A DNA stretch of 64,000 bases from an uncultured Chitinophagaceae bacterium (lineage in GTDB: Bacteria; Bacteroidota; Bacteroidia; Chitinophagales; Chitinophagaceae): NCBI GenBank assembly GCA_963783125.1, contig CAWAMQ010000009.1, positions 5,474-69,473 of the forward strand, written 5' to 3'. Below, one piece after another: positions 1,315 through 58,328 of this stretch. Positions within the stretch are counted from its first letter, which is position 1; every line of letters starts with the position of its first letter. Both the position numbers and the translations under genes were made by a program. The notes beneath the pieces were generated by a model. The model was not told where the DNA came from. It did no database searches and was given only the letters and a program-made list of their open reading frames with translations.

Positions 1315-1569
1315 AGGAAATTAAAATTTTTTATTAAACAATTTGTTAGGGCTATGGAAGATCGGTCTTAGCCGTGGAAAAAACCTGAGCGGTGCAGGAG
1401 CAGAATGAACGAAGAGGCAGGATGAAATACTAATAGTTTATACCAGCCGTACAGTAAATCAACTTTTACTAAAGATTTTTATTTCGTAATTTTCATCTTC
1501 GCATATATTTTATTACCCTTGGCGGTTACGACTTTCAGGGATCTTCCGAACAATTAAAATTTGCCTGAT

Positions 1570-3087
1570 ATGAGGATCAAAAAGAGAACGTTTATAATAA
1601 TTTGTGCAATTGCTTTTGCATTTACAACAAACGTAGCTGCACAATCATTGCCGGATTCAACCATAAAAAAAATCGACAACCTTTTCACGAAATGGAACTC
1701 AGCAAATAGTCCCGGTTGCACAGTGGGTATTGTCAGAAATGATTCGCTTGTTTTTTCCAAAGGATATGGAATGGCCAATCTTGAATATGCCATTCCAAAT
1801 GAACCACAGACGTTGTATCACATGGCTTCGGTCTCCAAACAATTTACGGCCTTTTCTATCATTTTACTGGCGAGACAATGTAAACTAAATCTTGATGATG
1901 ATATCCATAAATGGCTTCCCTGGTTTCCTGATCTGAAAGAAAAAATAACGATCCAAAATTTGTTGAATCACACCAGTGGCATAAGAGACCAATGGCAACT
2001 GCTTGCCATAGCGGGCACAAGGCTTGATGATGTGATAACGCAGGATCAGATCATAAAGATTCTGAGCAAACAACAGGCCCTGAATTTTAGACCGGGTGAT
2101 AAATACAGCTATTCAAACAGCGGGTTTACGATGCTGGCAGAAATAGTAAAAGCAGTGAGCGGACAAACATTGCGGCAATTTACAGACTCGGCGATCTTCA
2201 AACCTTTGGGCATGACCAGTACCCATATTCATGATGACTATACAGAGATTGAAAAGAAACGTTCGTATAGTTACGGTCGAAAAGATAGTTCCCATTTTTT
2301 CAATGCAGTTTTAAGCTACTCCGTGTCGGGCGCTACAAGTCTTTTTACCAATATCAATGACATGAGTAAATGGGTAATGAATTTTGATGACCACAAAGTG
2401 GGCGACCAGCAGGATATTGAGAGGCTGACACAAAAAGGAAAATTAAATAACGGTAAAGAATTGACCTACGCGCAGGGTATCGTAAACGATACGTGGAAAG
2501 GATGGCGGCAATATTCACATGCGGGGGCTGATGCAGGTTACAGAACTTACGTTGCAATCTTTCCAGATCTAAAAATGGGTTTTATGGTTTTCGGAAACCT
2601 GGGAGATTTCAATCCTGGTAAGAAAGTTTATGAGATGGCTGATTTATTTATAAAAGATACTACAGCATCCGCAAAAGTTAGAAAAAACAAAGACAAGAGA
2701 AACAGAACTGCAGCTACATTAACTATCACATCTGAAAAATTTACCGGCAATTATACCGGTGAAGTGGGGTCGGACCAATCATCCCATTTTCAAAAATTCA
2801 TAACCGACACGTCACATCCGGATGAAAGTTTGGAACCATATACGGGAGTCTATTATTCTCCGGAACTTGAATGCAGATATGGTATCGTTTTAAGAGATAA
2901 TAATTTATTCCTCACAAATTCCAAATACAACGATTCAAAATTGGTCTTAGTTGGCAAAGATCATTTAATGGGAAATACCTGGTGGATGAATCAGCTTATG
3001 ATGCTGCGTGACAGTAAAAATAATATTGTTGGCTTTGAAGTAAATTCGGACAGGGTAATGCATTTGAGGTTTAATAAAATTGATTAA
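1570..3087 (+). CDS. Secreted serine hydrolase, beta-lactamase/class C-like family
   Basis: Signal peptide; SxxK (ASVSKQF), YSYSN, LLNHTSG and HAGADAG motifs. ATG at 1570 preferred over TTG at 1561. Confidence 0.9.
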   Translation: MRIKKRTFIIICAIAFAFTTNVAAQSLPDSTIKKIDNLFTKWNSANSPGCTVGIVRNDSLVFSKGYGMANLEYAIPNEPQTLYHMASVSKQFTAFSIILLARQCKLNLDDDIHKWLPWFPDLKEKITIQNLLNHTSGIRDQWQLLAIAGTRLDDVITQDQIIKILSKQQALNFRPGDKYSYSNSGFTMLAEIVKAVSGQTLRQFTDSAIFKPLGMTSTHIHDDYTEIEKKRSYSYGRKDSSHFFNAVLSYSVSGATSLFTNINDMSKWVMNFDDHKVGDQQDIERLTQKGKLNNGKELTYAQGIVNDTWKGWRQYSHAGADAGYRTYVAIFPDLKMGFMVFGNLGDFNPGKKVYEMADLFIKDTTASAKVRKNKDKRNRTAATLTITSEKFTGNYTGEVGSDQSSHFQKFITDTSHPDESLEPYTGVYYSPELECRYGIVLRDNNLFLTNSKYNDSKLVLVGKDHLMGNTWWMNQLMMLRDSKNNIVGFEVNSDRVMHLRFNKID

Positions 3088-3255
3088 ATAAAATCGCGGG
3101 AGAATGATCACTTGTCACAACGCGTTACACTGAAATATTCAACAACATTTTCCCCTTGGTCTGACATTTTTTCCGTTCATAAAATTCTGACACAAATTAA
3201 CGGCGGTTCCGCTTAATTGTATTTATTTTCGAGCCTAACCGATATTAAAAAATTT

Positions 3256-4821
3256 ATGAAGAAATATTTTTTGCCGCAGCTCTCTTTAATAATTGTCGCT
3301 TTTTGTTTCGCAACGTCTTCTCTCAAAGCACAATCTAAAGACGTGCAGGAAATCAACCGTATTGAACAACCGTCTGTAGCCCTGGAACCATTGCGCTTCC
3401 TCGCTTCAGACGAATTGAAGGGAAGGGCTACAGCGCGCCCGGAGATCCAAATTGCCGCCCGTTATATCAGCGAAAAATTCAGAAGTATGCAGTTAAAAGA
3501 ATGTCCCAATACTACTGATTATTTTCAAAATTTTGATATTAAAATGATCACGCCAGCACAAACAGGAACGCTGATGGTTGGCGGGAACAATTTGCAGTTA
3601 GGTGAGGATTTGATACAGTTGAATGGCGTAGACATCAACATGGATGCACCGGTAGTGTTTGCAGGATATGGTAGCAAAAAAGATTTTGAAAACCTGGACG
3701 TAAAAGGAAAAATCGTTGTTACGCTTGCCGGCAAAAGCGATTCTTCCAACTTCCGGCAGGCATTTTCGATGGCGAGAACAAAGCGCAAACTGGCAGAAGA
3801 GAAAGGAGCGGCTGCGTTGATAGAACTTGCGGCCGGTTCGGATGTGCCGTGGAAAAGATTACAAAATTACCTGTCGCAGGAGCACGTGGCGAGACAGGAT
3901 GCAGCAGATACATTGGCGGTGTTTTGGCTAAAAGATTCAAATCACACTCTGGAAAGCGCAGTAAAAAATAAATCAATTTCTGCCAAACTAACGGTGACGG
4001 GCACACTGGAAAAAGATATTCCGGCGAAGAATGTGATGGGTTATGTAGAAGGCACCGATCCTCAGTTGAAGAATCAATACCTTATTCTTTCCGCACATTA
4101 TGATCATTTGGGCGTGGCCGAAACACCAGTAATGGAAGATGGAAAGATGGACTCGATTTATAATGGCGCACGGGACAATGCAGTTGGCGTTACCGCTGTG
4201 ATGGATGCTGCGCGCTACTTTGCACAACATCCTCCTAAAAGATCAGTTTTGTTTATTGCCTATACCGGCGAAGAAATAGGGGAGATAGGAAGCAAATATT
4301 TTGCGTCACACCCTGTAATTCCGCTGAAGCAGATTGTCTATAACATGAATATCGATAACGGTGATTATAACGATACAACGATCATTACGGTAGTGGGATT
4401 TGGCAGAACTTCTGCCGATGCCGATATTCAAAAAGGTTGTGAAGCGTTTGGATTAAAAGCCATTGCCGACCCGGCGCCCGAGCAGGATCTCTTTGACAGG
4501 AGCGATAATGTGAACCTTGCGGAGAAAGGAATACCGGCGCCCACTTTCAGTTTGGGTTTTACAAAATTTGATGCAGAAACAATGAAACATTATCATCATG
4601 TCAGTGATGAGGTAGGAAATATGAATCTTAATTATGTAATGAAATATATCAAGGCATATATTCTTGCTGCAAAAAATATCGCTGATGATCCAACTCCACC
4701 TACGTGGGAAAAGGGCGATAAATATGAAAAAGCGGGGAAAGAATTATATCATACAATAACTGAAAAGGTACAGAAGAAACCTGTTTTATTGCTGCAGCAC
4801 AAAACAAAAGATGGGCAGTAA
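3256..4821 (+). CDS. M28 family secreted metallopeptidase with PA insert
   Basis: SAHYDHLG, GARDN, GEE, NMNID and HYHHVSD Zn-ligand motifs; signal peptide from ATG 3256. Confidence 0.92.
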   Translation: MKKYFLPQLSLIIVAFCFATSSLKAQSKDVQEINRIEQPSVALEPLRFLASDELKGRATARPEIQIAARYISEKFRSMQLKECPNTTDYFQNFDIKMITPAQTGTLMVGGNNLQLGEDLIQLNGVDINMDAPVVFAGYGSKKDFENLDVKGKIVVTLAGKSDSSNFRQAFSMARTKRKLAEEKGAAALIELAAGSDVPWKRLQNYLSQEHVARQDAADTLAVFWLKDSNHTLESAVKNKSISAKLTVTGTLEKDIPAKNVMGYVEGTDPQLKNQYLILSAHYDHLGVAETPVMEDGKMDSIYNGARDNAVGVTAVMDAARYFAQHPPKRSVLFIAYTGEEIGEIGSKYFASHPVIPLKQIVYNMNIDNGDYNDTTIITVVGFGRTSADADIQKGCEAFGLKAIADPAPEQDLFDRSDNVNLAEKGIPAPTFSLGFTKFDAETMKHYHHVSDEVGNMNLNYVMKYIKAYILAAKNIADDPTPPTWEKGDKYEKAGKELYHTITEKVQKKPVLLLQHKTKDGQ

Positions 4822-4872
4822 ACAAAGAAATAATTTAAATTTTTATTTTCAATATAAACGTCAAAAACATTT

Positions 4873-7895: not shown

Positions 7896-8068
7896 TCTGA
7901 TAGATGTAACAATTCAGTAAACCAATAAAAAATAAACATTTTTGTTTTATTATTTATCAATGCAAAATGAAAAGCGATTTATTAGAATTTCTTCGTTAAA
8001 TTTATTGTAACAAACCGTATTGCATTTTTCAACACTTATCACATTTTTTACTTTAAAATCAATTCATC

Positions 8069-11935: not shown

Positions 11936-12196
11936 ACAGTAAACCAACAAATAACAGGGATTTCTCTTTTGGTCCGGCAAAGAGATGGAGTGTTTATGAT
12001 CATCTTTCAACCAGAGATGAAGTTTGCCCCCTTTTGTCTGCACCGCACCATTAACGCAAGCGGCAGGTTATCCATACTTAAAAAATTTGCAAATAATGCC
12101 TTGAGTGAAATTTTGTAATACCTGGTTTTAACTCTTTATTGATTTTCGTTAATTTTAGAGAACAGAATATCTGCAACATCTTTTCACGCAAAGCTG

Positions 12197-13870
12197 ATGG
12201 AAAACGAATTGCTACATAAAGGGCGCCAGGAACTCTCAGAAGGCCATTGGTACGAAGCGAAAACGCTGTTGGAAAAGGCCGCCGGGGAAAATCCATCTGC
12301 TGAGGCTTTCCAGGAGCTGGCAGAAGCATGCTGGTGGGTAAACGATATCCCCGCCGTACTCGCATATCGTGAGAAGGCGTACCAACTTTATCTCGAAAAT
12401 GGCGACAAGTATGGCGCGGCCCGCAATGCGTGCTGGCTGGGCATCGACTACCTTGAACTCAAGGGTGAATTTGCTGTGGCAAACGGATGGTTTCAAAGTG
12501 CAGAAACGCTTCTGCAAGGATCGGGCCCGTGCCCTGAACTCGGATTCATGATGTTGTTGAAAGGCCGCAAGGCTTTTATAACAGAGCCCGGCAACGAAAA
12601 TGCATTAAAATTTCTCAACGAAAGTCTTGCAATATGCCGCTCCCTGGGAAACGTGGATGGCTCTATGATGGCCGCTGCAATGAAAGGATTTTTGCTCACG
12701 ACTGAAGGAAAGATCCCCGAAGGAATGGCGTTATTGGATGAAGCTACGCTTATCGCTACAAGTGAACAAACAAAGAACATCAATTTTGTAACACTTACCT
12801 GTTGTATGCTAATAGAAGCATGTGAACGGGTGCGGGATTTTGACCGTGCAGGCCAATGGTGCAGGAAGGTGAAAGAAATATGTACCCGATGGCATTTTGA
12901 CGCCATGTTCGCTTCCTGTCGTAATCTATATGCATCTGTATTGGTGTGGATGGGTGAATGGAAGGAAGCAGAAACGGAACTTCTTGCAGCCAGGGACGAG
13001 CTGGAAAAGATGCGTCCGGCTTATGCGACCGCATCTGTGATAAGGCTTGCCGATCTTCGCAGGAAGCAGGGCCGGTGGGATGAGACGAAGAACCTGCTGG
13101 AGGAAGCTGACTCTCATTCGCTTAAATTATTGAACTGCGCTGCCCTGGCATTTGATCAGGATGATTATGTTGCGGCCTCAAATTTTGCTGAAAGATTTTT
13201 ACGGCAGATTCCTTCAAAGGAAAAAACACGGAAGCCCGAAGGTCTTGAACTGCTTGTGAGGATATACGTGGCGCAGGAGCGTATGGATGAAGTAGTTGCG
13301 GTTTTGGGCGAGTTAAAAGAAATTGCCGTATTGATTGATACCCTTCCGATACGGGCGGCAGTTAAAAGTGCAGAAGGAATCGTAAGGAAAGCTCAGGGGA
13401 AATACAAGTCTGCAAAACTACTTCTAGAAGACGCCAGTGATATCTACGATGCCGTCATTGCGCCATACGAGTCAGCCCGCACCCGGCTTGAGTTGTCAGA
13501 GGTGCTTGCAACCCTGGGGCAATTTCACCTCGCCGAATCGGAATTAAATAAAGCGCTAAAAATATTTCAAAGACTGGGCGCAGAAAAGGACGTGGATAAA
13601 ACCCGGCTTCTACTTAAGAATATCCACAAAACGAACGCCGAACTACTGGCAATAGATAAGAAATTGAAGTTTACAGGCCGCGAACTGGAAGTCCTGAGAT
13701 TGATTGCGGAAGGAAAGACCAATGAAGAAATCGCAGAACAATTATTTCTCAGTGTTCGTACCATTGAAAAGCATATTACGAATTTATACCTGAAGATGGG
13801 TGTTTCAGGCAAATCTGCCCGGGCCTTTGCTGCATCCTACGCCATTCGACATCATCTTATTTTTGACTGA
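12197..13870 (+). CDS. TPR-repeat/LuxR-family transcriptional regulator (MalT-like C-terminal half)
   Basis: Helical repeats plus C-terminal LuxR HTH (FTGRELEVLRLIAEGKTNEEIAEQLFLSVRTIEKHITNLYLK); no receiver or ATPase domain visible. Confidence 0.9.
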   Translation: MENELLHKGRQELSEGHWYEAKTLLEKAAGENPSAEAFQELAEACWWVNDIPAVLAYREKAYQLYLENGDKYGAARNACWLGIDYLELKGEFAVANGWFQSAETLLQGSGPCPELGFMMLLKGRKAFITEPGNENALKFLNESLAICRSLGNVDGSMMAAAMKGFLLTTEGKIPEGMALLDEATLIATSEQTKNINFVTLTCCMLIEACERVRDFDRAGQWCRKVKEICTRWHFDAMFASCRNLYASVLVWMGEWKEAETELLAARDELEKMRPAYATASVIRLADLRRKQGRWDETKNLLEEADSHSLKLLNCAALAFDQDDYVAASNFAERFLRQIPSKEKTRKPEGLELLVRIYVAQERMDEVVAVLGELKEIAVLIDTLPIRAAVKSAEGIVRKAQGKYKSAKLLLEDASDIYDAVIAPYESARTRLELSEVLATLGQFHLAESELNKALKIFQRLGAEKDVDKTRLLLKNIHKTNAELLAIDKKLKFTGRELEVLRLIAEGKTNEEIAEQLFLSVRTIEKHITNLYLKMGVSGKSARAFAASYAIRHHLIFD

Positions 13871-13984
13871 TACACTACAGTCTTCGCAAAAAATACGTGT
13901 TGCGGTAAAAAAATTACGTAGTACCGCGCTATTCTGCTATTTCCATTGTTTCTATTTTGCAGGCATCACCAAAAACATGTTGTC

Positions 13985-15124
13985 ATGCAAACAGATCACA
14001 TTGAAAAATACAAAGTAATTGTAATAGGCGGCGGACAAGCCGGACTTTCGATGGGGTACTACCTGTCGAAGTATAGAATACCTTTTATAATACTTGATGC
14101 CTCAGAAAGAGTGGGAGATGCATGGCGCAAGCGTTGGGATTCGTTGCGCCTGTTTACGCCGGCGAGATACGATGAATTGCCCGGGTTTCCCTTTCCGGCG
14201 CCGCGACATTCGTTCCCTACAAAAGATGAAATGGCGGATTACCTGGAATCCTATGCCAAGCATTTTAATTTGCCGGTTCGTTCATCCACGACGGTACACG
14301 AATTGAGTCGCGACCGTAACCGGTATCTTGTCAGGGCTGGCGATCAATGTTTCGAGACCGAACATGTTGTGGTTGCCATGTCAAATTATCAATACCCTAA
14401 AATCCCTTCCATGGCCAAAGCACTCAAAAGTGATATTGTACAGTTGCATTCACATGCCTACAAAAACCTTTCGCAGTTGCAGGAGGGGCCGGTGCTGGTT
14501 GTGGGCTCAGGCAACTCAGGTGCTGAAATTGCATTGGAGGCGGCAAAAACACATTCCGTATTTCTTGCCGGAAGAGATACGGGCCATATTCCCTTTGATA
14601 TTGAAAGTAATATCGGCAAAAGATTTCTTGTCACTCTGGTGATACGATTCCTTTTTTTTAAGATATTAAAAACCAGTAATTTTTTGGGTAGAAAAGCAAG
14701 GGAAAAAGTGATTAATATTGGAGGTCCTCTCATCCGTCATAAGCCGAAAGATTTTCGTTTGGCTGGCATAGTTAGGACTGGCCGGATGACGGGTGTAAAA
14801 GACGGTAAGCCTGTCGTTGATGATAAGGTGCTGGATATTAAAAATGTGGTATGGTGTACCGGCTATTATCCCCGGTTCTCGTGGATTGATCTGCCTGTGT
14901 TCGGGGAAAATGATCAGCCAAAGCAAAATCGTGGCGTAGCTGATGATGAGCCAGGGTTGTATTTTCTCGGATTGCATTTTCTTTATGCGCTCTCGTCAGC
15001 AATGATCCATGGGGCACCACGCGATGCAAAGTTCATTGCAGGGGTAATAAGGAAGCGTTTGAGCGAATCCAGTATCGGGATGGGAACCCATAGGATGAAA
15101 AAGGCGATTGCACCTGTTTCGTAA
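13985..15124 (+). CDS. Flavin-containing monooxygenase-like FAD/NAD(P) oxidoreductase (CzcO/TrkA-like)
   Basis: GGGQAG FAD motif, WRKRWDSLRL, QLHSHAY, VVGSGNSG NADPH motif, WCTGY; likely start ATG 13985. Confidence 0.9.
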   Translation: MQTDHIEKYKVIVIGGGQAGLSMGYYLSKYRIPFIILDASERVGDAWRKRWDSLRLFTPARYDELPGFPFPAPRHSFPTKDEMADYLESYAKHFNLPVRSSTTVHELSRDRNRYLVRAGDQCFETEHVVVAMSNYQYPKIPSMAKALKSDIVQLHSHAYKNLSQLQEGPVLVVGSGNSGAEIALEAAKTHSVFLAGRDTGHIPFDIESNIGKRFLVTLVIRFLFFKILKTSNFLGRKAREKVINIGGPLIRHKPKDFRLAGIVRTGRMTGVKDGKPVVDDKVLDIKNVVWCTGYYPRFSWIDLPVFGENDQPKQNRGVADDEPGLYFLGLHFLYALSSAMIHGAPRDAKFIAGVIRKRLSESSIGMGTHRMKKAIAPVS

Positions 15125-15283
15125 CAGTTCTGACAGTGATATGCGATGGGATTTTTTTATAAGCGATTTAAGCCCATGAAAATTACAGTAAACAAAGAAA
15201 TAAAAAGGATTTCTCTTTAGATCATGGTAAAAAAAATGAAGAACTTTTCGGTTCTTCATTTTTAAAAACTTTGTTCGAAAGAT

Positions 15284-18897: not shown

Positions 18898-19008
18898 CCT
18901 GGTTGCAGTAAACGGACAAATATTAGTGATTTTCAATTAGGCCTTAACCATCCGCGATATAAAACAAAAATGTGTTGAGTTTGTCTTTCTACTGTGTTTC
19001 AAAAAAAA

Positions 19009-19029
19009 GACAACCTTTTTGGGGTTGTC
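19009..19029 (-). terminator. Intrinsic terminator between convergent genes
   Basis: GACAACC-loop-GGTTGTC hairpin with an A8 tract on the left (U tract on the minus strand) after the helicase. Confidence 0.6.
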
Positions 19030-19052: not shown

Positions 19053-20291
19053 TTAGCGTCCCTGGCTCCAGCTTCTTGCCCTCCTGAAACCACTGTGTGA
19101 TGCAGGTTTCCTGTTCATCAGGTTGTTTTTATTAACGGGTGTTTGTACAAATTGAAGTTTACTTGCATATGGATGATCTTCAACTACGGGAATTGTTTTT
19201 TCAATCAGCTTGTGAATATCACGCAGGTAAGCTCTTTCTTCCATGTCACAAAAAGAAAGCGCAGATCCGGAGTTGCCGGCCCTGCCTGTACGACCAATAC
19301 GATGTACATATGTTTCGGGGATATTCGGCAATTCAAAATTGATCACATGGCTCAGGTCATCCACATCAATCCCACGGGCGGCGATGTCTGTTGCTACCAG
19401 CACGCGGATTTTTCCGTCTTTAAAATTACTTAATGCCTTTTGCCTTGCACTTTGGGTTTTGTTACCATGTATCGCATCTGATTTGATATTAGCCCGGTGA
19501 AGCGTGCGCGCAATTTTATCCGCTCCATATTTGGTTCTGGTAAAAACCAATGCATTTTGAATGGTTCCGTTTTTAAGAAGATGTATCAGCAACTCACGCT
19601 TGTCATTTTTTTCCACAAGGTAAATTTGCTGGTCTACATTTTCAGCAGTTGATGAAACCGGCGTTACTTCTATTCTTACAGGATTAGTCAATATAGAAGC
19701 CGAAAGCCGGGTAATTTCCGGGGGCATTGTCGCCGAGAAAAACAAAGTTTGTCTCTTTTCCGGGAGAATGGCAATGATCTTCCTGACATCATTGATAAAA
19801 CCCATGTCCAGCATGCGATCGGCCTCATCCAATACAAACATTTCAAGGCTTTTCAGATTCACAAATTTCTGGGCGATTAAATCCAGCAACCTGCCTGGTG
19901 TAGCAATTAACACGTCTACGCCTTTGCGTAATTGGGTAGTTTGATGATACTGTGAAACACCTCCAAAAATTACCGCGTGTTTTATGCCGGTATGCTTGCC
20001 GTAGGCTTCAAAACTTTCGTCAATTTGTATTGCCAGCTCGCGGGTAGGTGTTAAGATCAATGCTTTGATATGTGTATGCCCGTTTTCTTTTCCCTGCAAA
20101 ACCAGGTTTTGCAAAATGGGAATGGCAAAAGCAGCCGTTTTTCCTGTGCCTGTTTGTGCGCAACCTAAAAGATCTTTGCCACGAAGTACGTGCGGGATTG
20201 CCTGTTCCTGTATGGGCGTTGGTTCTGTATAACCTTCTGTTTCCAGCGCCTTTAATATAGGCGCGATTAAATGTAATTCTTTAAATAACAA
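19053..20291 (-). CDS. DEAD-box RNA helicase (RhlE-like)
   Basis: Q motif, AQTGTGKT, PTRELA, DEAD, SAT, HRIGRTGR; TTG start. Confidence 0.96.
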   Translation of the reverse strand: MLFKELHLIAPILKALETEGYTEPTPIQEQAIPHVLRGKDLLGCAQTGTGKTAAFAIPILQNLVLQGKENGHTHIKALILTPTRELAIQIDESFEAYGKHTGIKHAVIFGGVSQYHQTTQLRKGVDVLIATPGRLLDLIAQKFVNLKSLEMFVLDEADRMLDMGFINDVRKIIAILPEKRQTLFFSATMPPEITRLSASILTNPVRIEVTPVSSTAENVDQQIYLVEKNDKRELLIHLLKNGTIQNALVFTRTKYGADKIARTLHRANIKSDAIHGNKTQSARQKALSNFKDGKIRVLVATDIAARGIDVDDLSHVINFELPNIPETYVHRIGRTGRAGNSGSALSFCDMEERAYLRDIHKLIEKTIPVVEDHPYASKLQFVQTPVNKNNLMNRKPASHSGFRRARSWSQGR

Positions 20292-23195: not shown

Positions 23196-23368
23196 ATCAT
23201 CATAGCTTTTTAAATCTGCCTGCCCCCAAAAAAGCAGGTGGGAGTTTTACAGTAAATCAACAAATACTTCAGATTCTTATTTTCATCAGGCTATAAAGCC
23301 GATGCTAATGTTAGCTTTAAACAATTTAAATTAAATTCTATATCTTGAATAAGTCAAATCATTGAAAT

Positions 23369-26129: not shown

Positions 26130-26194
26130 TCCCTTTTTTATTTTTGATTTTTTCGATTTACTTTTGTGCAACTTTAAACACAAAATGATATAAA

Positions 26195-28869: not shown

Positions 28870-28983
28870 GCAGCTTCAGGCCAAAACAGGAATCTTCATT
28901 ATTTCTTTGTTTACTACACATTTGTAGCCAACGTAAATTTGCCGGTGGCACAAAGCAATTATATTTGCTTTATAAATTATGCC

Positions 28984-30411: not shown

Positions 30412-30518
30412 TTGATAAGGTGGGGTAGGAATTATGGTTTCGAGGTTTAGAAAGTTTAGAGGTTTAGACAGTAGACGAATAAATTACCGCGATTTTTATT
30501 TTCCTGTTTTACTGATCA

Positions 30519-34065: not shown

Positions 34066-34569
34066 TCATGACCCTCGCACGAAATGACTAAGATAAATTG
34101 AGATAGATAATAGGAACAAAAATGATCCGGCCAAAATAATAACAATGTCCAATTTTTTAGTACTAATAAACTTATTGCCTATATCGTATAATTTCAGTCC
34201 AAGAAAACCTCCGAGCGTATTGGTAATTACATCGGTTATGTCGCTGGCCCCAATGGCAAAGATGTATTGAATCATTTCAGCAGCAAGACTAAAAGCCAGT
34301 ATAAAAACAAGCTTGCGAACAAAGCCTGTTTTTTTGAAATTAACACTTAAAAGCAAGCCGAAGGGAATAAAGAATAAACAATTATCTATGATCTCTCCGT
34401 AATTTATTTTTCCCCTTACGATTGAAGGAGCAGCAAATGGAATAAGGTTAAGGCTTCTATGGTGGTAATGAAGTACTGACGCAATATTGAATTTAAGTTT
34501 AAATAACACTAACCAGGTTAATACCACTAAATACACAGCCAGCAATCCCTTGAACCATATTTTTTTCAT
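34066..34569 (-). CDS. VanZ family membrane protein
   Basis: SLNLIPF, DNCLFFIPFGLL, AEMIQYIFAIGASDITDVITNTLGG; probable start ATG 34569. Confidence 0.88.
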   Translation of the reverse strand: MKKIWFKGLLAVYLVVLTWLVLFKLKFNIASVLHYHHRSLNLIPFAAPSIVRGKINYGEIIDNCLFFIPFGLLLSVNFKKTGFVRKLVFILAFSLAAEMIQYIFAIGASDITDVITNTLGGFLGLKLYDIGNKFISTKKLDIVIILAGSFLFLLSISIYLSHFVRGS

Positions 34570-34889
34570 ATCCTGATTTGAATGCAATAGTATCCGGCCG
34601 TTCTTTTCTCACAGGTAACAATTACTAAATAAAAATACCAAATAAAAGTTCATTTACTGTCTTCTTACTTAGAGGAATGTCGCGTACCAGAGACGTTCCC
34701 GCGGAAAAAGTCGTTGTTTAATTGTTGAGATATTAACTCGGGACATAATTTTATCATTACACTTCCCGAAACTAAATCGTGAATAGCTCGCATTTTTTAG
34801 ATTACTGTTAATGAATCATCGCCGTATCCCGCCGCGCTAACGGTCGGAGTGGAGGCATGGCTTCGGCAAAAAAACTCCTCTTATCAATT

Positions 34890-35531
34890 CTATATTTTAC
34901 CAAACAAACCTACAAATTCTCCATTCGTCAATTGTTTCATTTCACCAGTGTTGGTATTATATAGTTTACATGAGAACTGCAATTTTACCGATAGATAGTA
35001 ATCTATGGGGCTTTGTGAATCCTGTTCACTAATAATTTTGATGGTACTGCCGGTTTGATCGCCGGTGCCGCTGGAAGTATTCCATTCTGTGCCATTCTCA
35101 TCAATCCAGGTCACGATAAAGCCATCACCATTTTTATATGGATCATAGTCAGGGCCGGTAGTATAATTATAGCTTCCCGGCGTAAAATAATCATAGAACT
35201 GCTGGTCGGTAAGGGAAAGATAATTATGCAATATTCCTTTTGTGATATCCATGTAAGTTCTGTTGGCCCCATATTGGGAATTTGACGGGCTGATAGTTGC
35301 AGAAACGGTTACGTCGTCAGTTCCTCCCAGGGCAGAACCTGCTTCATAGCCATTGGTTTGAGTAACTGTTTGTGCATAGGCTGTACCGCCAATGGTTGCC
35401 TTAAAATAATAAGTAGACGTATCGGTTTTATTATTTTTCCCCTTTTTGCAACCCGAAAAAATGAATGAAGAAGAGAGAAGAATTGCAGAGAGAAATAAAA
35501 GCAGGGCGTTTTGATTTGTTTTGATTTTCAT
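34890..35531 (-). CDS. Hypothetical lipoprotein
   Basis: Lipobox FSGC followed by KKGK; Thr/Gly/Tyr-rich beta-type body. Confidence 0.8.
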   Translation of the reverse strand: MKIKTNQNALLLFLSAILLSSSFIFSGCKKGKNNKTDTSTYYFKATIGGTAYAQTVTQTNGYEAGSALGGTDDVTVSATISPSNSQYGANRTYMDITKGILHNYLSLTDQQFYDYFTPGSYNYTTGPDYDPYKNGDGFIVTWIDENGTEWNTSSGTGDQTGSTIKIISEQDSQSPIDYYLSVKLQFSCKLYNTNTGEMKQLTNGEFVGLFGKI

Positions 35532-35768
35532 TTTAAGCAGTTGTTTTTTATTTTAGCAATGGTATATGTTAGTGAGAGTGGGTAGCACCTATCTCATAAA
35601 GAAAGCGTTGGTAATTTAGGAGATAATTGCTTACGAAGTCGCTTGTCGCTCATTAACAAAAAACAAAGTAAATTAAAATTTTGATTAGTAAGATCATTTT
35701 TTTTAGAAAAAGGTAATTATTATTAAAAGAAAAAGTTACGGGGGTCACCGGCAGGGCACCAGTTGCGA

Positions 35769-36089
35769 GTGCTGAAGACTTAGACACAAAGCAATCGCCA
35801 ACAATATTTACAAAATAAAAACACCCAATAAAAGTAGGTTTACTTTTCAACCGCAAAGGTCGCAAAGATTTTACGCAATGCCCGCAAGGTGCTATTAGAT
35901 CGAAGAACCTTTGCGTTCCTGGCGCTTTCTTTGCGTGCATTGCGGTCCGGTTTTAACCGCCATGAATATTGTATAAATATGAAAATAAAAATATCAAATA
36001 AAAGTTGGTTTACTGCAACTATAGCCTACGTCTGGATTTGCTAAAGGTATAGTAACGAACAGTCACAGGTCAATAGACCTGCGCCAGTT
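35769..36089 (+). repeat. ~320-bp direct repeat, copy 1 (copy 2 at 36759-37077)
   Basis: Collinear match including an identical core TTTACTTTTCAACCGCAAAGGTCGCAAAGATTTTACGCAATGCCCGCAAGGTGCTATTAGAT. Confidence 0.9.
35849..35946. repeat. CGCAAAG-type REP-like inverted repeat (second copy 36838-36940)
   Basis: Left arm CCGCAAAGGTCGCAAAG...CGCAATG..CGCAAGG; right arm CCTTTGCG...CTTTGCGTGCATTGCGG. Confidence 0.7.
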
Positions 36090-36291
36090 GCGAGTGCCGA
36101 AGACTTAGCCGCAGGGCAATCACCAGCAACATTTGCACAATAAAATACCCAATAAAAGTTTGTTTACGGCGACTCTTAAAATTAAGTGCCGTTGGTCGGA
36201 AGACCAGCCGGCGGCACAACTCCCAAATGGATAACTTCAAACAACCGGAACACCCACAGAGGCAAAGTGCCGGAGATGTCCCTGGGAGAAA

Positions 36292-36717
36292 TTATTTTGT
36301 TACTCTTTTCATACCGTTTGTGATTCCGCCTTTAATCATATTTCCATATCCATCGTCAGGTAACAAGTAGGTGAACGAAAGCGCTAATTCATAATTCCTT
36401 TTTGCATTATCAGGATCGTTTAAATCTTCGTAGCATTTAGCTACGTTTAAATATAATGAAGGAAAAGTTCCTTTGATTGTGTCGTCATTTATTTTTAAAG
36501 CCCACTGTAAAGCTGTTACGTCCCATTTCAATTTGTCGGCTGCACTTTTTTGATGTCGGGCTACATAATGAGCGGCAGTAAATTTTTCAAAGTCATTTGT
36601 TGCCTCGTCCCATGCTTTCAGAAAGAGTTTGCTTGCTTCTTCTAATTTACCTTGTCCTTCCATGTCCATTCCCAGGGCACAGAGTTTAACTATTTGGTTG
36701 TTTGGATCGAATTCCAT
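36292..36717 (-). CDS. TPR-like helical protein
   Basis: 141 aa of helical repeats (EEASKLFLKAWDEA; SLYLNVAKCYEDLNDPDNAKRNYELAL). Confidence 0.82.
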   Translation of the reverse strand: MEFDPNNQIVKLCALGMDMEGQGKLEEASKLFLKAWDEATNDFEKFTAAHYVARHQKSAADKLKWDVTALQWALKINDDTIKGTFPSLYLNVAKCYEDLNDPDNAKRNYELALSFTYLLPDDGYGNMIKGGITNGMKRVTK

Positions 36718-36758
36718 TTTCTAATTATTTCGTCTTTTTTCCGGCGTTGTTGGTGTTC

Positions 36759-37077
36759 GTGCTGATGACTTAGACGCGGGCAATCACTAACAACATTTAC
36801 AAAATAAAAATACCTAATAAAAGTTGGTTTACTTTTCAACCGCAAAGGTCGCAAAGATTTTACGCAATGCCCGCAAGGTGCTATTAGATAGAAGAATCTT
36901 TGCGCTCCTGGCGCCTTCTTAGCGTGCTTTTCATTCCGGTCTTAACCCCCATGAATATTGCATAAATATGAAAATAAAAATATCAAATAAAAGCTTGTTT
37001 ACTGAATTTATAGCGTAGGTCTGGATTTCTAACGATATAGTGACGAATAGTTACAGGTCAAGAGACCTGCGCCAGTT
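36759..37077 (+). repeat. ~320-bp direct repeat, copy 2
   Basis: Homologous to 35769-36089 with scattered substitutions. Confidence 0.9.
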
Positions 37078-37147
37078 ATATATTGTATAAATATGAAAAT
37101 AAAAATATCAAATAAAAGTGGATTTACTATAGTCTTCTCTGAATTAA

Positions 37148-37178
37148 AAAACCGCTCCAAACATTGAAACGGTTTTTA
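37148..37178 (-). terminator. Intrinsic terminator after the amino acid permease
   Basis: AAAAACCG...CGGTTTTT hairpin about 20 nt past the stop codon. Confidence 0.5.
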
Positions 37179-37198
37179 TAAATATTAATTAGAGGCAA

Positions 37199-38761
37199 TT
37201 AAATAAGCGGTGGAATATCTTCCGGAACCTCATGGGCCTCTTCCCGGTCATCATAAGGATATTTATCCGGGTTTCTTAAGCGGCTGTGATGGCGGCTATA
37301 TCCGAAATAGATAATAAAACCGATGAGTAACCAACCAAAAAGACGTACCCAGTTGGTCCAACCCAATCCGAAGATCATCGCTGCGCAAACTACAATTCCT
37401 GCAATAGAAATTACTTTAAACGCAGGAACCCTGAAACCTCTTGGTATCTCTGGATGTTTTACACGCATGATCCATACGCCTGCACACACAAGGATGAAGG
37501 CAAACAAAGTTCCGATACTGGTCATATCACCCACAATATCGCCGGGAATAAAGGTGGCAAAAGACCCCACCAGTAAAAGGAAAATCAAATTTGATTTGTA
37601 AGGTGTTTTGAATTTCGGATGAATATCAGCGAAAACTTTTGGCACCAATCCATCTTTACTCATCGAATAAAATACCCTCGACTGTCCCATAAGCATTACG
37701 AGGATCACGGAAGAAAATCCCAGCAAGATCGCGATGGTGACCAGGTCGCTGAGCCACTGGAATGCCGGAACCCAAACACCACCAACCATTGAGCCACTCA
37801 TGTGCTCGATAGCATATACAACGGAAGCTTCACTACCGGTGGTTCTGAATTCTTCTACCGAGGCAACACCTGTAAGTACGTATGAAAATAAGATGTATAA
37901 AATAGTACAAATAACTAATGAACCTAAAATACCAATTGGCATATCCCTGCTTGGGTTTTTGGTTTCCTGCGCTGCAGTAGACACAGCATCGAAACCAATG
38001 AAGGCAAAGAAGACGACGCCCGCCGCGCCAAGTATTCCGAGAATTCCTCCGTAATGGTAGGAGATACCCATATGATCAGTATAGATAGTTGGTTCAGGTA
38101 TAAATGGAGTATGGTTCGCCGGCTTCATATATTGCCAGCCCACCACAATTACTACTATTACAATAGCCACTTTTAAAAGAACAATAATCCCGTTTACCAC
38201 GGCCGATTCCTGCATTCCCCTTATCAATAAAAGCGAAAGGATAATCACAATGCCAAGAGCGGGCAGGTTTACTATTCCATGATGCAGGTGATCCGTCGAG
38301 ACATTAAAAGGCGAATGGCACCATTCATACGGGACCTGGACATGAAAAATTTCAAGGAATTTATTAAAATATTCTGCCCATGCAATTGCCACAGTTGCCG
38401 CACCTACTCCATACTCCAGCACAAGATCCCAGCCGATGATCCACGCGATAAATTCGCCCATCGTGGCATAAGAATACGTATATGCACTACCGGCAATCGG
38501 GATCATAGAAGCAAATTCTGCATAGCATAATCCTGCAAAGGCGCACCCAAGCGATGCGATTACAAAACCGTAGGTTACAGAAGGACCGGCGTGTTGGGCG
38601 GCCGCCGCGGCGGTCCTTACAAACAAACCGGCGCCAATGATAGCGCCAATACCGAGGGCAATAAGATTTAAAGGCCCTAACGTTCTTTTTAATGTATTTT
38701 CAGATTCACCTGCTTCGTGCATTAAATGACTTACAGGCTTCGTGATAAATAGACTACTCAT
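37199..38761 (-). CDS. APC-family amino acid permease
   Basis: LGIGAIIGAGLFV, CYAEFASMIP.AGSAYTY, FFAFIGFDAVSTAAQETKNP. Confidence 0.95.
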   Translation of the reverse strand: MSSLFITKPVSHLMHEAGESENTLKRTLGPLNLIALGIGAIIGAGLFVRTAAAAAQHAGPSVTYGFVIASLGCAFAGLCYAEFASMIPIAGSAYTYSYATMGEFIAWIIGWDLVLEYGVGAATVAIAWAEYFNKFLEIFHVQVPYEWCHSPFNVSTDHLHHGIVNLPALGIVIILSLLLIRGMQESAVVNGIIVLLKVAIVIVVIVVGWQYMKPANHTPFIPEPTIYTDHMGISYHYGGILGILGAAGVVFFAFIGFDAVSTAAQETKNPSRDMPIGILGSLVICTILYILFSYVLTGVASVEEFRTTGSEASVVYAIEHMSGSMVGGVWVPAFQWLSDLVTIAILLGFSSVILVMLMGQSRVFYSMSKDGLVPKVFADIHPKFKTPYKSNLIFLLLVGSFATFIPGDIVGDMTSIGTLFAFILVCAGVWIMRVKHPEIPRGFRVPAFKVISIAGIVVCAAMIFGLGWTNWVRLFGWLLIGFIIYFGYSRHHSRLRNPDKYPYDDREEAHEVPEDIPPLI

Positions 38762-40485: not shown

Positions 40486-40709
40486 GACGATATTTTTCAG
40501 GTTAAAAAATCTAATTAGCTACCCCGGCTGAGCAATTTCCTGGTGGGGGCCCCAACCGTAAATGGGTTAAACTCAATTTTTTTTGCAACAGAAATCGTGC
40601 TAATTTGTTCGTTTACTATATCTGCCGCCTTTTTAAAACTAAATCGTTGCATAAAATGCACTTATCGCAGTATTCCTTAGTTTTGGCAATTATCATCTGA
40701 CTGATTTTT

Positions 40710-42165: not shown

Positions 42166-42855
42166 GTGAGTTTGATAGAAATTTTAGGAATCAATATTAA
42201 AGATCTTTTAAATCCGCAGTTCTACATTGATAACGGCGGATTGTGGATGATACTTTTTATCGTTTTCGCCGAAACCGGTTTGTTTGCCGGCTTTTTTTTA
42301 CCGGGCGATGCCCTGCTTTTTGTGACAGGGATTTACAGCGAACAGGTGGTGGAGGCGGCTTTATTTAACGCTCACAGCCAATGGGCGAACCTTGGAATTT
42401 TGTGGGTGTCAATCACGCTCGCCGGTGTGCTCGGTAATTTTGTGGGCTATTGGTTTGGTGTCAAAAGCGGGCCGTTTCTCTTTGAAAAAAAAGACACCTT
42501 TTTCTTCCGGAAAAAACACCTGGTACAGGCACACGAATTTTACGAAAAGAATGGCGCAGGCGCAATCATCCTTGGCAGGTTTATCCCTTTCGTGCGCACT
42601 TTTGCCCCCATTGTAGCCGGTATTGTAAAAATGGACAAACATAAATTTGCTGTATACAATATAGTGGGAAGTATGTTGTGGGTCGGCAGTATGTTGGTGG
42701 CCGGTCACTTCCTGCAAACGTTGATCATGAATGAATTTAATTTTGATTTAAAAGAGCATCTGGAGGTAATTGTTTTGGGAATAATCGTGGTAACAACATT
42801 CCCGGTATTGTGGAAAATATTTACGGGAAATAAAAAGATGCCGCCGGTGGACTAA
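42166..42855 (+). CDS. DedA/VTT family membrane protein
   Basis: FAETGLFAGFFLPGD, GRFIPFVRTFAPIVAG; GTG start. Confidence 0.93.
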   Translation: MSLIEILGINIKDLLNPQFYIDNGGLWMILFIVFAETGLFAGFFLPGDALLFVTGIYSEQVVEAALFNAHSQWANLGILWVSITLAGVLGNFVGYWFGVKSGPFLFEKKDTFFFRKKHLVQAHEFYEKNGAGAIILGRFIPFVRTFAPIVAGIVKMDKHKFAVYNIVGSMLWVGSMLVAGHFLQTLIMNEFNFDLKEHLEVIVLGIIVVTTFPVLWKIFTGNKKMPPVD

Positions 42856-42945
42856 AATAAAAAACAGGATTATTTGTTCGTTTACTGTCTCTTATTTAAC
42901 GACTCCTTTTTAATTGTTTTGCAAATCTTTGCCAAAAAAAAATCA

Positions 42946-43998: not shown

Positions 43999-44154
43999 TT
44001 TTTTTCCATCCTGTAGTAAACAAATAAATAACCCGGATTTTCGTTTTCCTTTTGATTTATTCAAACCATTAATTGATGTTAAAATAAAGATGTTTAACCA
44101 ATCCTTAATATTTAAAAAATGAAATTCGCAATTGTATAAACCAGGCACCCTGAA

Positions 44155-48731: not shown

Positions 48732-48876
48732 AGTTTAAAAATTTGTCCGTAAAATTATTACTCTTTTAATGAAAAATAAAGGAAATGAAATAGAAATAAG
48801 AAATAATTATGAATAGATTAAGAGGATATTATATCGAACATTATAAGCAAAATAATTTTCGGTGAAATAAGTTTGT

Positions 48877-49932
48877 TTACTGTTTTGCAAATGTTACTGT
48901 GCAATCAAATTTATTATCTCCTTCGCCTAATTGCTGAGCGGCCGAATTGCTTATAACCGTTATCAGGCCATCGTTTTGGCTGATGTCAGGAATGGCGTCT
49001 AACACTTTGGCATAAACGCTTTTTCCATTTGATATATTAGTGATTTTAAGAATGGTGCCTGCCGCCGCATCATTGCTGAAGCAGTAATATTTTTGATCCT
49101 GCCAACCGCTTGTAGACTTAAACACTCCTGTGGTACCGGTTTTATCTGTTGTCGGTTTTCCGGAGGTTTGCCTTTCAAATAAATTTTTAAAATAACCGGT
49201 TGATAAGGCGCTGTTATTATTGCCGGTGCTGGTTACAGGTAAATTGTTGTTGCTACCAACTGTTGGCGATGCCGGTTCTGTTTCGGCAGCTGGAAGCGTT
49301 GAAACTTCCGCAGTTTCTTTGTTTTCGGGTTTTACTTCTGCAGCCTTGTTGTCATCTTTTCCTTTTATTTCGGATTGGTGTGTAACCGCTGGTTGTTGTG
49401 TTACGGCTGGTTGTGAAACCGGCACATTGGCCATTGGCTGTTCACTGGCCAGTGGTGATTGTTCTTTATCCACTTTTAAAAAACCGACAATCATGGGCTG
49501 GCCTACCGTTAGGGCGTCTGAGGCGAGATGATTCCATTTTTTTAAAGATGCCAGCGCCACTTTGTTATAGTTAACGCCCAGCCGGTAAAGGGTTTCACCG
49601 GAACTTACTATATGATAAACGGGAATAAGTGCTTCGTTCGGTGCTGCAATTTCCTGTTGTGTAAAATTGGTATTGCTTAACGGGATTTTTAGAACCTGGC
49701 CAATATTCAATCCACTCGCAAAATGGAGGTGATTAAAGGTTGCCAGTTCTTTCGGGCTTACATTAAACATCCTTCCTACACTGTAAAAATTCTCTTTAGG
49801 TGTTACTACATGTTCCACATAGATGGCCGAACCGGTACCTTTTATTTCAAGCTTATTTTGTTGTGCCCATAAAACATTACCTGTGATGAATGAAAAAACA
49901 ATAAGCATCAACCATTTAGACATACTGAGCAT
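48877..49932 (-). CDS. LysM peptidoglycan-binding protein with C-terminal RlpA/DPBB-like domain
   Basis: Two LysM domains (HVVTPKENFYSV; HIVSSGETLYRL), low-complexity linker, GTILKITNISNGKSVYAKVL. Confidence 0.85.
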   Translation of the reverse strand: MLSMSKWLMLIVFSFITGNVLWAQQNKLEIKGTGSAIYVEHVVTPKENFYSVGRMFNVSPKELATFNHLHFASGLNIGQVLKIPLSNTNFTQQEIAAPNEALIPVYHIVSSGETLYRLGVNYNKVALASLKKWNHLASDALTVGQPMIVGFLKVDKEQSPLASEQPMANVPVSQPAVTQQPAVTHQSEIKGKDDNKAAEVKPENKETAEVSTLPAAETEPASPTVGSNNNLPVTSTGNNNSALSTGYFKNLFERQTSGKPTTDKTGTTGVFKSTSGWQDQKYYCFSNDAAAGTILKITNISNGKSVYAKVLDAIPDISQNDGLITVISNSAAQQLGEGDNKFDCTVTFAKQ

Positions 49933-52470: not shown

Positions 52471-52585
52471 GCAGGCTATTTGTTTTGAGTAAAGAAGTCG
52501 GTCTTAAATTGCAACGGTAACAACTAAAATAAGAATTCAATTTTTTTGTTTGTTTACTGAATTTTCATCATCAAATTTTCACGAA

Positions 52586-53953: not shown

Positions 53954-54018
53954 GTTATCTAAAAATCAGAATAAAAATCTTCACAATTTGTTGGTTTACT
54001 ATAAGCAGATTCAAAAAA

Positions 54019-54046
54019 AATCCCTTCACAAAAATGTGAAGGGATT
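54019..54046 (-). terminator. Intrinsic terminator of groES-groEL
   Basis: AATCCCTTCACA-AAAA-TGTGAAGGGATT hairpin with an A8 tract. Confidence 0.8.
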
Positions 54047-54082
54047 GAAATTGAAAATTTATTTTTTGTGGGAGTGCATGGA

Positions 54083-55729: not shown

Positions 55730-55758
55730 AATATTTATTTTTCTTTTTTTTAAATGAA

Positions 55759-56058: not shown

Positions 56059-56093
56059 AATTGTTAAATTTATTTAATTTATTATTTGGGTTG

Positions 56094-56101
56094 CAAATGT
56101 A
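56094..56101 (-). promoter_or_regulatory. -7 promoter box for groES-groEL
   Basis: Minus-strand TACATTTG. Confidence 0.55.
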
Positions 56102-56264
56102 CACGAATAATTGTACCAAAGAATTTTATCAGTTTAGTTGGCAGGAAATTGAATTGTGTGTCAGTTTTTTTAGGAAAAATAACCGTCAAAATTTCATTTT
56201 CGTTTGGCTATCCTGGTGAAGCGTGGATACGATTCAACTCTTTTGAGCAAAACAGGATGATGTT

Positions 56265-56855: not shown

Positions 56856-56903
56856 AATCCGGCAAAAATAAGAATTGCTATTCTTTGTTGTTTTACTATC
56901 AAC

Positions 56904-57533: not shown

Positions 57534-57927
57534 CGGGTTTCTTTCGCGCTATTTTCATTAACTGAATTACTTCCAGGGAAGTATACACCAAATAAATTCC
57601 CATCGAAGTAAGGATCGACGGCTTGTTCGCTTCTCCGCCCATCACCAAAATATAAATAACGATGGCCACAACGATCACAAACATCTTAAGCAGGAGAGAA
57701 GAGTAAACGCCCCTGATGAAAGCATTGATATTGGTAGAACGCACGCCTTTTGTCTGGATGTAAAATCCCAAAAAAGTGAGAATAAAAAGTATCGCATTGG
57801 CCACTAATAAAAAACCGATATTGAAGCCATATTCTTTCAATGAAGCGCCGAAAATGAAAAGCACAAGATTGATCACGAGGAAGAGGCCTATCACAGAAAT
57901 GAATTTTTTTATAAGGGCTTGAATCAT
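57526..57927 (-). CDS. 4-TM membrane protein, AtpI-like
   Basis: 133 aa, four helices, overlaps the upstream AtpZ-like gene; position typical of atpI. Confidence 0.6.
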   Translation of the reverse strand: MIQALIKKFISVIGLFLVINLVLFIFGASLKEYGFNIGFLLVANAILFILTFLGFYIQTKGVRSTNINAFIRGVYSSLLLKMFVIVVAIVIYILVMGGEANKPSILTSMGIYLVYTSLEVIQLMKIARKKPDA

Positions 57928-58133
57928 TTTTTTGAAGTGTCTTTTATTATTTTAATAGTAAGGGCAATAATGATCAACAACGGCAGCAGCCACACAAGCA
58001 AAGGAAAAGAAAATTTTAACCAATTATCAGCTTTTAAACCAATAAATATTCCGAGGGCGATGCTTGCTAAAAACTCCATCCCCATGCCGGCATATCTTAA
58101 CAAATCACTGTTGTTTTCTTTTTTTGTTTTCAA
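57924..58133 (-). CDS. AtpZ/AtpI family small 2-TM protein
   Basis: LRYAGMGMEF...IGLKADNWL...LVWLLPLL pattern of the ATPase_gene1 family. Confidence 0.75.
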   Translation of the reverse strand: MKTKKENNSDLLRYAGMGMEFLASIALGIFIGLKADNWLKFSFPLLVWLLPLLIIIALTIKIIKDTSKK

Positions 58134-58328
58134 ATCTTATAATAGTTAAATAAAGCTGTTCATTCTCCCTATCATTCCAGGTTGTTAAAAAATACGCGGG
58201 CCGCTGTATATATTGACATATTAGGCTAAAATAACCGTATTTTTAAAATATTTTTGCAGAAAAAGAGTTCTTATCAGTAAATAGACTTTTTTTGCTGATT
58301 CTTACTTCTAAAAATTTTAAAAATATTA

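Follow-up and report, generated by a model that had tools for sequence, protein, structure and literature searches.

To our knowledge, genome-saturating words that are maintained at the DNA level and have an established mechanism are few: the uptake signals of two proteobacterial families, Chi, and the FtsK-orienting polar sequences (KOPS). The uptake signal sequence (USS) of Pasteurellaceae has the core AAGTGCGGT in Haemophilus influenzae, which is reportedly followed by two phased A/T tracts, and the DNA uptake sequence (DUS) of Neisseriaceae is a 10–12-bp word that is read by the minor pilin ComP and often forms inverted pairs that act as terminators. Other dispersed elements are similar in particular respects. 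Repetitive extragenic palindromes (REPs) and bacterial interspersed mosaic elements (BIMEs) of Enterobacteria and Pseudomonas are imperfect, strictly extragenic palindromes tied to RAYT (TnpA-REP) proteins, IHF sites combine WATCAANNNNTTR with an upstream A-tract, the cyanobacterial highly iterated palindrome HIP1 (GCGATCGC) is an 8-bp word linked to a methyltransferase, and Rickettsia palindromic elements (RPEs) are 100–150-bp insertions that lie in frame inside protein-coding genes. Here we describe a dispersed motif from an uncultured Chitinophagaceae bacterium (phylum Bacteroidota), which was noticed as a recurrent AGTAAAC heptamer in a 64,000-nucleotide stretch of contig CAWAMQ010000009.1 (GenBank assembly GCA_963783125.1), referred to as the window. 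The heptamer is the core of a motif of about 35 bp that is a clade-specific, highly informative and young DNA word, held by a force that acts on the DNA itself. Its properties fit best, if tentatively, with an uptake-signal-like (USS/DUS-like) self-recognition sequence.

The window covers positions 5474–69473 of contig C9 in an assembly (G000) of 4.10 Mb with 24 contigs and 41% G+C. Gene calls are crude longest open reading frame (ORF) calls, which treat 88% of the DNA as coding and over-extend ORF 5′ ends, and intergenic and coding counts are approximate. A preliminary description of the window had listed 16 exact AGTAAAC copies, all of which are present on the strands given, and had correctly noted identical flanks (AGTAAACAAAGAAATAA three times, AGTAAACGAACAAAT twice). 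The window contains 24 exact copies compared to 7.2 ± 2.7 in dinucleotide shuffles, none of 100 of which reaches 24; the eight copies besides the 16 lie in coding DNA without the extended motif or conserved flanks. Seven further sites had been proposed as variants, among which those at 1453, 23251, 30470, 34652 and 37122 are clear weight-matrix matches, the one at 58276 is weak (score 10.6) and the one at 26156 consists of core and A-tract only and is not a full member. Four copies had been overlooked, at 56864–56899(−) and, more weakly, at 18960–18995(−), 36135–36170(−) and 61099–61134(+). Genome-wide, AGTAAAC has 645 copies in 0.5 Mb of intergenic DNA and 713 in 3.6 Mb of coding DNA. A Markov background trained on intergenic DNA fails to explain this count: AGTAAAC is the top-ranked intergenic 7-mer with 637 occurrences against 85 expected (order 2), and still ranks first under the maximal-order model (370 expected, z = 13.8). 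Enrichment extends uniformly beyond the window, with 0.22–0.38 copies per kb on each contig longer than 20 kb. The observation is confirmed and is larger than was first reported.

Alignment of the 645 intergenic copies gives the asymmetric motif C-AGTAAAC-n-AAC-(AAATAA or TTTTAT)-N4-R-ATTTTT-ATTTT, outside which the flanks are random. A 36-column position weight matrix (PWM) detects 1,226 sites in the genome at a score of at least 14 compared to seven in the reversed genome; 26 copies lie in the window. Decayed copies are few in the score histogram, and core variants include TAGTAAAC, CAGTAAAG, CAGTGAAC and CAGTAAAT. TTT replaces AAA at positions 11–13 in about 15% of copies as a block switch, no covariation occurs besides this block and none links the A-rich and T-rich halves, and windowed folding energy near copies is weaker than background, with no hairpin. 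Interchangeable A- and T-tracts together with absent pairing point to recognition of double-stranded DNA, through its shape plus an 8-bp specific core, rather than of RNA. The A/T tracts start about 11 bp apart. Motif information amounts to 31 bits, where 12.7 bits would be enough to specify 1,226 sites. The N4 spacer has no shared ancestry between copies, the adjoining motif positions are 90–99% conserved, and copies have neither terminal inverted repeats nor target duplications. No Rfam family matches the window, and a literature search for AGTAAAC in a Bacteroidetes context returned nothing relevant.

The preliminary description had compared the core with GTWWAC methylation sites. GTAAAC matches that hexamer, and the motif is AT-rich like Bacteroidota promoters, but an epigenetic site or a promoter element is very improbable as an explanation. 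GTWWAC forms that lie outside the 36-nt word lack a comparable intergenic enrichment (GTAAAC/GTTTAC 0.60 vs 0.65, GTATAC 0.08 vs 0.13 and GTTAAC 0.18 vs 0.13 per kb); what is enriched is the long asymmetric word and not the hexamer. A Bacteroidota sigma-A promoter (TTTG at −33 and TAnnTTTG at −7, with ~19-bp spacing) was rejected because the consensus lacks this pair at the right spacing and its orientation is unrelated to downstream genes, with 260 copies directed toward a same-strand gene and 382 not so directed.

The motif also occurs inside genes. About 150 copies (~12% of the total) lie deep in long ORFs, among them those of guaA, gatA and alaS. The sense strand and two of the three frames are mostly used, and the copies read (A/T)VN(E/Q)Q..N(L/F)I.. 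or SKQTN... The exact 17-mer CAGTAAACNAACAAATA occurs deep in coding DNA in 10 of 88 cases, which is more than whole genomes of motif-free relatives hold. GuaA of G000 has only two extra residues at the motif relative to the Escherichia coli protein, and GatA only one relative to that of Staphylococcus aureus; both of these homologues are solved, and orthologues likewise agree to within 1–2 residues. Within the clade, guaA reads TAC AGT AAA CAA ACA AAT AAT CCC ATT TTT GGT TTA CAG, and the gene of another species, G002, has the same number of codons at this site with a different peptide (SNENEKNKIYGLQ). In a 1,249-amino-acid protein (X1249), the motif dates from the ancestor of G000 and G015, where four point mutations (with K to V, V to I and one synonymous change as the outcome) produced it, and G016, G009 and G005 retain the earlier sequence. 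Coding copies arose by substitution, not by insertion, and occupy tolerant loops even of essential proteins. Constraint was assessed in six genes from four sister species as identity to G000: third-codon positions that coincide with informative motif positions are 94.1% identical (143/152), compared to 53.0% (846/1596) in the flanks (odds ratio 14, Fisher p = 6e-27) and 43.8% in the uninformative spacer, and first and second codon positions are alike in motif and flanks. This pattern indicates that the constraint acts on the word as DNA and parallels its information profile. In this it resembles HIP1, a lineage-specific word in genes and spacers that is kept by DNA-level selection, but HIP1 is a short palindrome whereas the present motif is long and asymmetric. 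RPEs likewise occur in frame in genes, but as insertions, whereas the motif formed by point substitution with gene length unchanged.

Two observations concern individual coding sites. A tandem family of TPR-sensor histidine kinases outside the window (C11:4212-20252 and C2:63638-88745 of G000) has an in-frame motif in each member, where it encodes AVNQQKS.NLI.Y in the ATPase-domain loop that connects the N and G1 boxes. In guaA of G016, a 21-nt in-frame insertion (CGCGCCGGAGGACGGGCAGG-like and G+C-rich) lies in the middle of the motif and splits the core from the A/T tracts (alignment columns 167–187).

The taxonomic range of the motif is narrow. Exact copies of the 17-mer number 88 in G000, 100 in G009, 116 in G015 and 79 in G016, with 20 in G024 and 13 in G005, compared to 0–3 in 19 other species of the same Genome Taxonomy Database (GTDB) genus; a backwards control gives zero everywhere, and 16 further families in the order have no copy of the 17-mer. 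Conservation across Chitinophagaceae, an early suggestion for checking, is limited to one clade of the genus. The form in G005 is divergent. When the core is left out of the search pattern (AABWWWWWNNNNNNWTTYYTNTT), enrichment is 9-fold in G000, 5-fold in G015, 4-fold in G005 and 3-fold in G009, and there is none in other species sampled, which therefore seem to lack a version with a different core. A repeat search of 20–40 kb each of G002, G012 and G011 revealed no comparable repeat or alternative word, and a candidate dialect word in G002 (TACTACTTWTTTC) turned out to be clustered at one place. Public carriers are metagenome-assembled genomes (MAGs) labelled Ginsengibacter sp., Hanamia sp. 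or uncultured Chitinophagaceae. Carriers are closest to each other in GatA identity (84% and 81%), with G002 (79%) as the nearest motif-free species. The motif is long, informative and young, its youth following from its absence from sister species at about 75–80% identity. Among phages, 50 viral contigs have one copy each and none has more.

Genome-wide, the motif uses both strands equally (615 plus, 611 minus), and neighbouring copies share orientation in 54.7% of cases, which is only slightly above chance. Copy strand has no relation to local GC skew in the replichore check that had been suggested, and a replichore-polar motif (Chi- or KOPS-like) is ruled out by this result and by strand equality. 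Most copies lie 0–25 nt from a stop codon in both orientations, which bears out the early impression of a location at stops or immediately past them, irrespective of strand, and in about 100 cases the TAA of the motif itself serves as the stop codon. Convergent gaps are occupied most often (61%), compared to 31% of tandem and 28% of divergent gaps; in tandem gaps, 200 copies are antisense and 157 sense, and copies are closer to the upstream stop than to the downstream start. A signal for transcription termination or insulation, in the form of a protein roadblock or of a bidirectional hairpin-less terminator at gene ends, would account for the proximity to stop codons and the high occupancy of convergent gaps. 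Roughly operon-sized spacing (about one copy per 2.7 genes), U-richness of both strands when read as RNA and the rarity of canonical hairpin terminators (10–17% of gene ends, with no enrichment in the window) are consistent with such a role. Divergent gaps, however, have no 3′ end at all, and the copies deep in genes are mostly on the sense strand. Furthermore, tRNA and tmRNA genes have ordinary hairpin-T terminators, often with the motif, if present, beyond them, motif presence is statistically independent of predicted hairpin terminators, near relatives lack the motif, and there is no RNA structure at copies, all of which make a termination signal decidedly improbable. A literature search on termination found no Bacteroidota-specific signal. 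An intrinsic (Rho-independent) terminator was rejected because copies have no hairpin and tandem gaps contain them in both orientations. Overall, the position pattern agrees better with placement at the least harmful sites than with a function linked to 3′ ends.

Spacing is more regular than gene arrangement predicts. Copies have a mean density of about one per 3.3 kb and a median distance between successive copies of 3.0 kb with a coefficient of variation (CV) of 0.65, and short and long gaps are both scarce. Against a null in which intergenic gaps are filled at class-specific rates, the CV is 0.751 compared to 0.897 ± 0.031, with 0.828 as the lowest value in 300 simulations. Coding copies occur in large intervals between intergenic copies (median 7.7 kb compared to 5.2 kb for random coding positions, p = 1e-14) and tend toward the centres of these intervals. 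Among close pairs, direct orientation prevails (21/29).

Intergenic copies are partly retained between species. Orthologous copies persist in G000, G015, G016 and G005 in the four gaps examined, with differing spacers. The copy at 28882 has orthologues in G015, G016, G005 and G009, is decayed in G024 and has only a partial look-alike in G002; the copy at 42853 has orthologues in G015 and G005, is decayed in G016 and G009 and is absent in G002. Orthologous gaps in G002 lack copies and are 30–125 nt shorter than motif-bearing gaps, given which intergenic copies may have originated by insertion. Copies also occur at the edges of variable gene blocks. A two-gene block specific to G000 (a LuxR/TPR regulator and a flavin monooxygenase, window 12197–15124) lies between the pyruvate phosphate dikinase and H+-pyrophosphatase genes and has a direct motif copy on each side (11936 and 15185; mutual identity 85%); in G015 and G005 the flanking genes are adjacent with a single motif copy between them. 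In G015 (C14:176500-180300), a 2.9-kb insertion abuts the orthologous groEL copy between groEL and a glucoamylase-like gene, and comprises a 430-nt upstream region and an 807-amino-acid gene that, from its translation read by eye, we take to be GH95 fucosidase-like. These two cases, of which the G015 groEL case is one-sided, suggest that copies may mark or promote cassette boundaries.

Longer motif-bearing gaps, an insertion between two similar direct copies, the excess of direct close pairs and a patchy, clade-restricted distribution would also be expected from a miniature non-autonomous mobile or selfish repeat (REP-like, RPE-like or like a miniature inverted-repeat transposable element) that spread by insertion in the clade ancestor and now serves as a recombination substrate at cassette boundaries. 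Such an origin is improbable because coding copies are substitutions, the hallmarks of insertion (terminal inverted repeats, hairpins and target duplications) are missing, and the N4 spacer lacks shared ancestry within otherwise strongly conserved surroundings; the scarcity of decayed copies and the conservation of informative positions between species also argue against it. REPs and BIMEs are similar in length (~35 bp), in hundreds of species-specific copies and in their preference for gene 3′ ends and convergent gaps in either orientation, but the motif is non-palindromic and also intragenic. A REP/RAYT system was rejected on the absence of a palindrome or hairpin and because matches to the Y1 transposase family (PF01797) do not track the motif: they are weak in G000, absent in G009 and strong in motif-free species. 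An integron attC or cassette array was likewise rejected, with no inverted-repeat structure and even coverage of all contigs, in this case with no integrase search made.

A different kind of DNA-level function would be to bind, at an array of sites, an abundant, clade- and sequence-specific architectural protein that bends DNA (IHF/HU-like) or anchors loops or supercoil domains. This protein would recognize the 8-bp core as a monomer, with the phased A/T tracts wrapped around it, and one site per ~3 kb would be selected for chromosome organization. Many of the features described above are compatible with such an array: the asymmetric ~35-bp motif with tracts in ~11-bp phase, interchangeable AAA/TTT forms that point to shape rather than base read-out, even spacing with coding copies that fill gaps, orientation independence with the highest density between convergent genes, where positive supercoils collect, and constraint on the DNA as under binding-site selection. 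It would also be unaffected by the apparent comEC frameshifts discussed below. Nevertheless, no candidate protein was found, the information content is far above what ~1,200 sites need and is unusual for nucleoid proteins, the absence of the motif from sister species means that the function would be a recent invention, and single orthologous sites decay (in G016, G009 and G024). Known IHF sites are similarly asymmetric, ~35 bp long and frequent in intergenic gaps, with an A-tract about one helical turn off, but the motif does not match the IHF consensus, and IHF sites are low in information and are not known to be the top-ranked word of a genome. An architectural array is the main rival to an uptake signal, and is a possible but rather unlikely explanation. 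A binding site for a nucleoid-associated protein or global regulator was among the original suggestions, of which the first part is compatible with an orientation-free, DNA-level signal, while a classical regulator is unlikely given ~1,200 sites, mostly at gene 3′ ends and inside genes, and 31 bits where 12.7 would be enough.

The self-recognition reading, in which the motif is an uptake signal, would draw these properties together. In this model, a clade-specific DNA-reading protein would recognize the word as a tag of self-DNA that is preferred by the DNA-uptake machinery, as for Pasteurellaceae and Neisseriaceae signals, and that machinery might be of the pilus-independent kind reported for Riemerella. 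Import and recombination would favour fragments that bear the motif, and the resulting molecular drive would both disperse and preserve the word where it is tolerated, with copies settling beside stop codons first and in variable protein loops where intergenic gaps are scarce. Of the known classes, only Pasteurellaceae and Neisseriaceae uptake signals appear to combine all of the properties observed. Similarity to USS includes the grammar, in which phased A/T tracts follow an asymmetric 8–9-bp core, a copy number of about a thousand shared equally between the strands, spacing that is more even than chance, coding copies formed by substitution at tolerant peptide positions, lineage-specific variants and an information excess, which is reported for USS as well. 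Differences are that the motif occurs once per 3.3 kb, compared to about once per 1.2 kb for USS, and in a member of the Bacteroidota without a type IV pilus ATPase and with comEC apparently frameshifted in two assemblies. The motif resembles DUS in its restriction to a clade, one member of which (G005) has a divergent form, in the placement of many copies shortly after genes, and in flanking variable gene cassettes as described for minimal mobile elements; however, it is longer (35 bp), occurs as single copies and cannot have a pilin receptor.

Natural competence in Riemerella does without type IV pili and uses an uncharacterised route through the outer membrane, and R. columbina has a preference for self-DNA (PMC7965970, PMC8459023), which makes an uptake function plausible in this phylum. 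G000 encodes intact DprA and an intact ComEA-like protein with three helix-hairpin-helix (HhH) motifs, and ComEC is encoded in almost all relatives, with intact genes (~700 amino acids) in G005, G009 and G002. It is conceivable, if somewhat doubtful, that a soil Chitinophagaceae clade tags its own DNA with a 35-bp signal read by Riemerella-type outer-membrane import, as a case of sequence-specific uptake in Bacteroidota. This would be the first uptake signal known to us outside the Proteobacteria and would involve a new kind of receptor.

Several results weigh against an uptake signal. In G000, comEC (C1:464098-466195) is split into ORFs of 228 and 478 amino acids by a 1-nt insertion relative to three relatives, and in G015 (1817–3914 of its locus) it is split at a different place. 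These splits may be real pseudogenes or indel errors of MAGs; if they are genuine, two genomes that are among the richest in the motif are unlikely to represent cells that take up DNA today. Neither G000 nor the clade has an ATPase of the PilB/PilT/ComGA/GspE type (PF00437 above cut-off), so the minor-pilin receptor class of Neisseria cannot apply. The share of copies deep in coding DNA is small compared to the about 65% of Haemophilus USS copies that are coding, close pairs are mostly direct, unlike the inverted pairs of Neisseria, and all carriers found are MAGs. Finally, selection for evenly spaced sites of an architectural protein would leave an equal footprint. A motif copy also lies inside the N-terminal part of G000 comEC (C1:465674).

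Whatever protein reads it, the word is strong enough to alter amino acids of GMP synthase and of the tRNA-dependent amidotransferase. If it is a true uptake signal, it opens natural transformation, self-recognition and gene-flow barriers in soil Bacteroidota to study, and if it is a protein-binding array, it reveals a new chromosome-organizing system. The 36-mer could be used as bait for the reader protein and as a marker that assigns metagenomic contigs to the clade.

Copies in the window are collected in Table 1. They part unrelated genes, such as those for DedA and GT9, FKBP and serine dehydratase, and a glucoamylase-like protein and GroEL.

Table 1. Motif copies in the 64,000-nucleotide window, with strand and position weight matrix score.
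Position	Strand	PWM score	Context
1451–1486	+	25.5	Core AGTAAAT, TTTTAC class; divergent gap
4815–4850	+	40.2	Own TAA is stop codon of ORF 3217–4821
7914–7949	+	32.7	Divergent gap
11936–11971	+	43.1	1 nt past pyruvate phosphate dikinase stop; orthologous copies in G015 and G005; left bracket of G000-specific two-gene insertion
15185–15220	+	35.8	85% identical to 11936 copy; right bracket of two-gene insertion
18905–18940	+	30.5	8 nt past stop; convergent gap
18960–18995	−	12.1	Weak or decayed; inverted relative to 18905 copy
23249–23284	+	33.2	Core AGTAAAT
28882–28917	−	36.5	Between FKBP and serine dehydratase genes, antisense to both
30468–30503	+	34.5	Core AGTAGAC; convergent gap; orthologous in G016 and G015; absent in G002
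34625–34660	−	21.7	TTTTAT class; local array
35811–35846	−	19.8	TTTTAT class; local array
35981–36016	−	33.7	TTTTAT class; local array
36135–36170	−	10.7	Weak; core CGTAAAC; local array
36800–36835	−	28.2	TTTTAT class; local array
36970–37005	−	26.6	TTTTAT class; local array
37095–37130	−	17.9	Core AGTAAAT; local array
40584–40619	−	31.2	Divergent gap
42853–42888	−	42.2	Overlaps DedA/VTT gene stop, antisense; before GT9 gene
44013–44048	+	36.0	15 nt past stop
48848–48883	−	27.2	Own TAA is stop of ORF 48877–49932(−)
52525–52560	−	35.6	Antisense; tandem gap
53967–54002	−	38.9	Between glucoamylase-like gene and groEL; orthologous copy adjoins groEL in G015
56864–56899	−	22.8	5 nt past stop
58274–58309	+	10.6	Weak; core AGTAAAT
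61099–61134	+	12.5	Weak; inside ORF 58329–61325

The local array (window 34560–37220) contains ~320-bp direct repeats at 35769–36089 and 36759–37077 and seven same-strand copies, all in the minority AAC-TTTTAT class, which surround two genes, a small TPR gene and one that is lipoprotein-like. The suggestion that the motif is a footprint of the system that built the array at 34.6–37.1 kb finds no support: copies are even across all contigs, and the array, a ~320-bp duplication with a minority variant, looks like a local tandem duplication and not the source of the genome-wide motif.

Canonical terminators were also seen near and beyond these copies. One of the few clear ones in the window, GACAACC-loop-GGTTGTC followed by T8 at 19009–19029(−), lies downstream of ORF 19053–20291(−) in the same convergent gap as two motif copies, an example of coexistence between motif and hairpin terminator. 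Outside the window, four tandem tRNA-Lys genes (C6:238168-239241 of G000) repeat with a ~335-bp period and have near-identical hairpin terminators; another copy that shares this downstream sequence occurs at C15:99934 and may be a contig-end duplicate.

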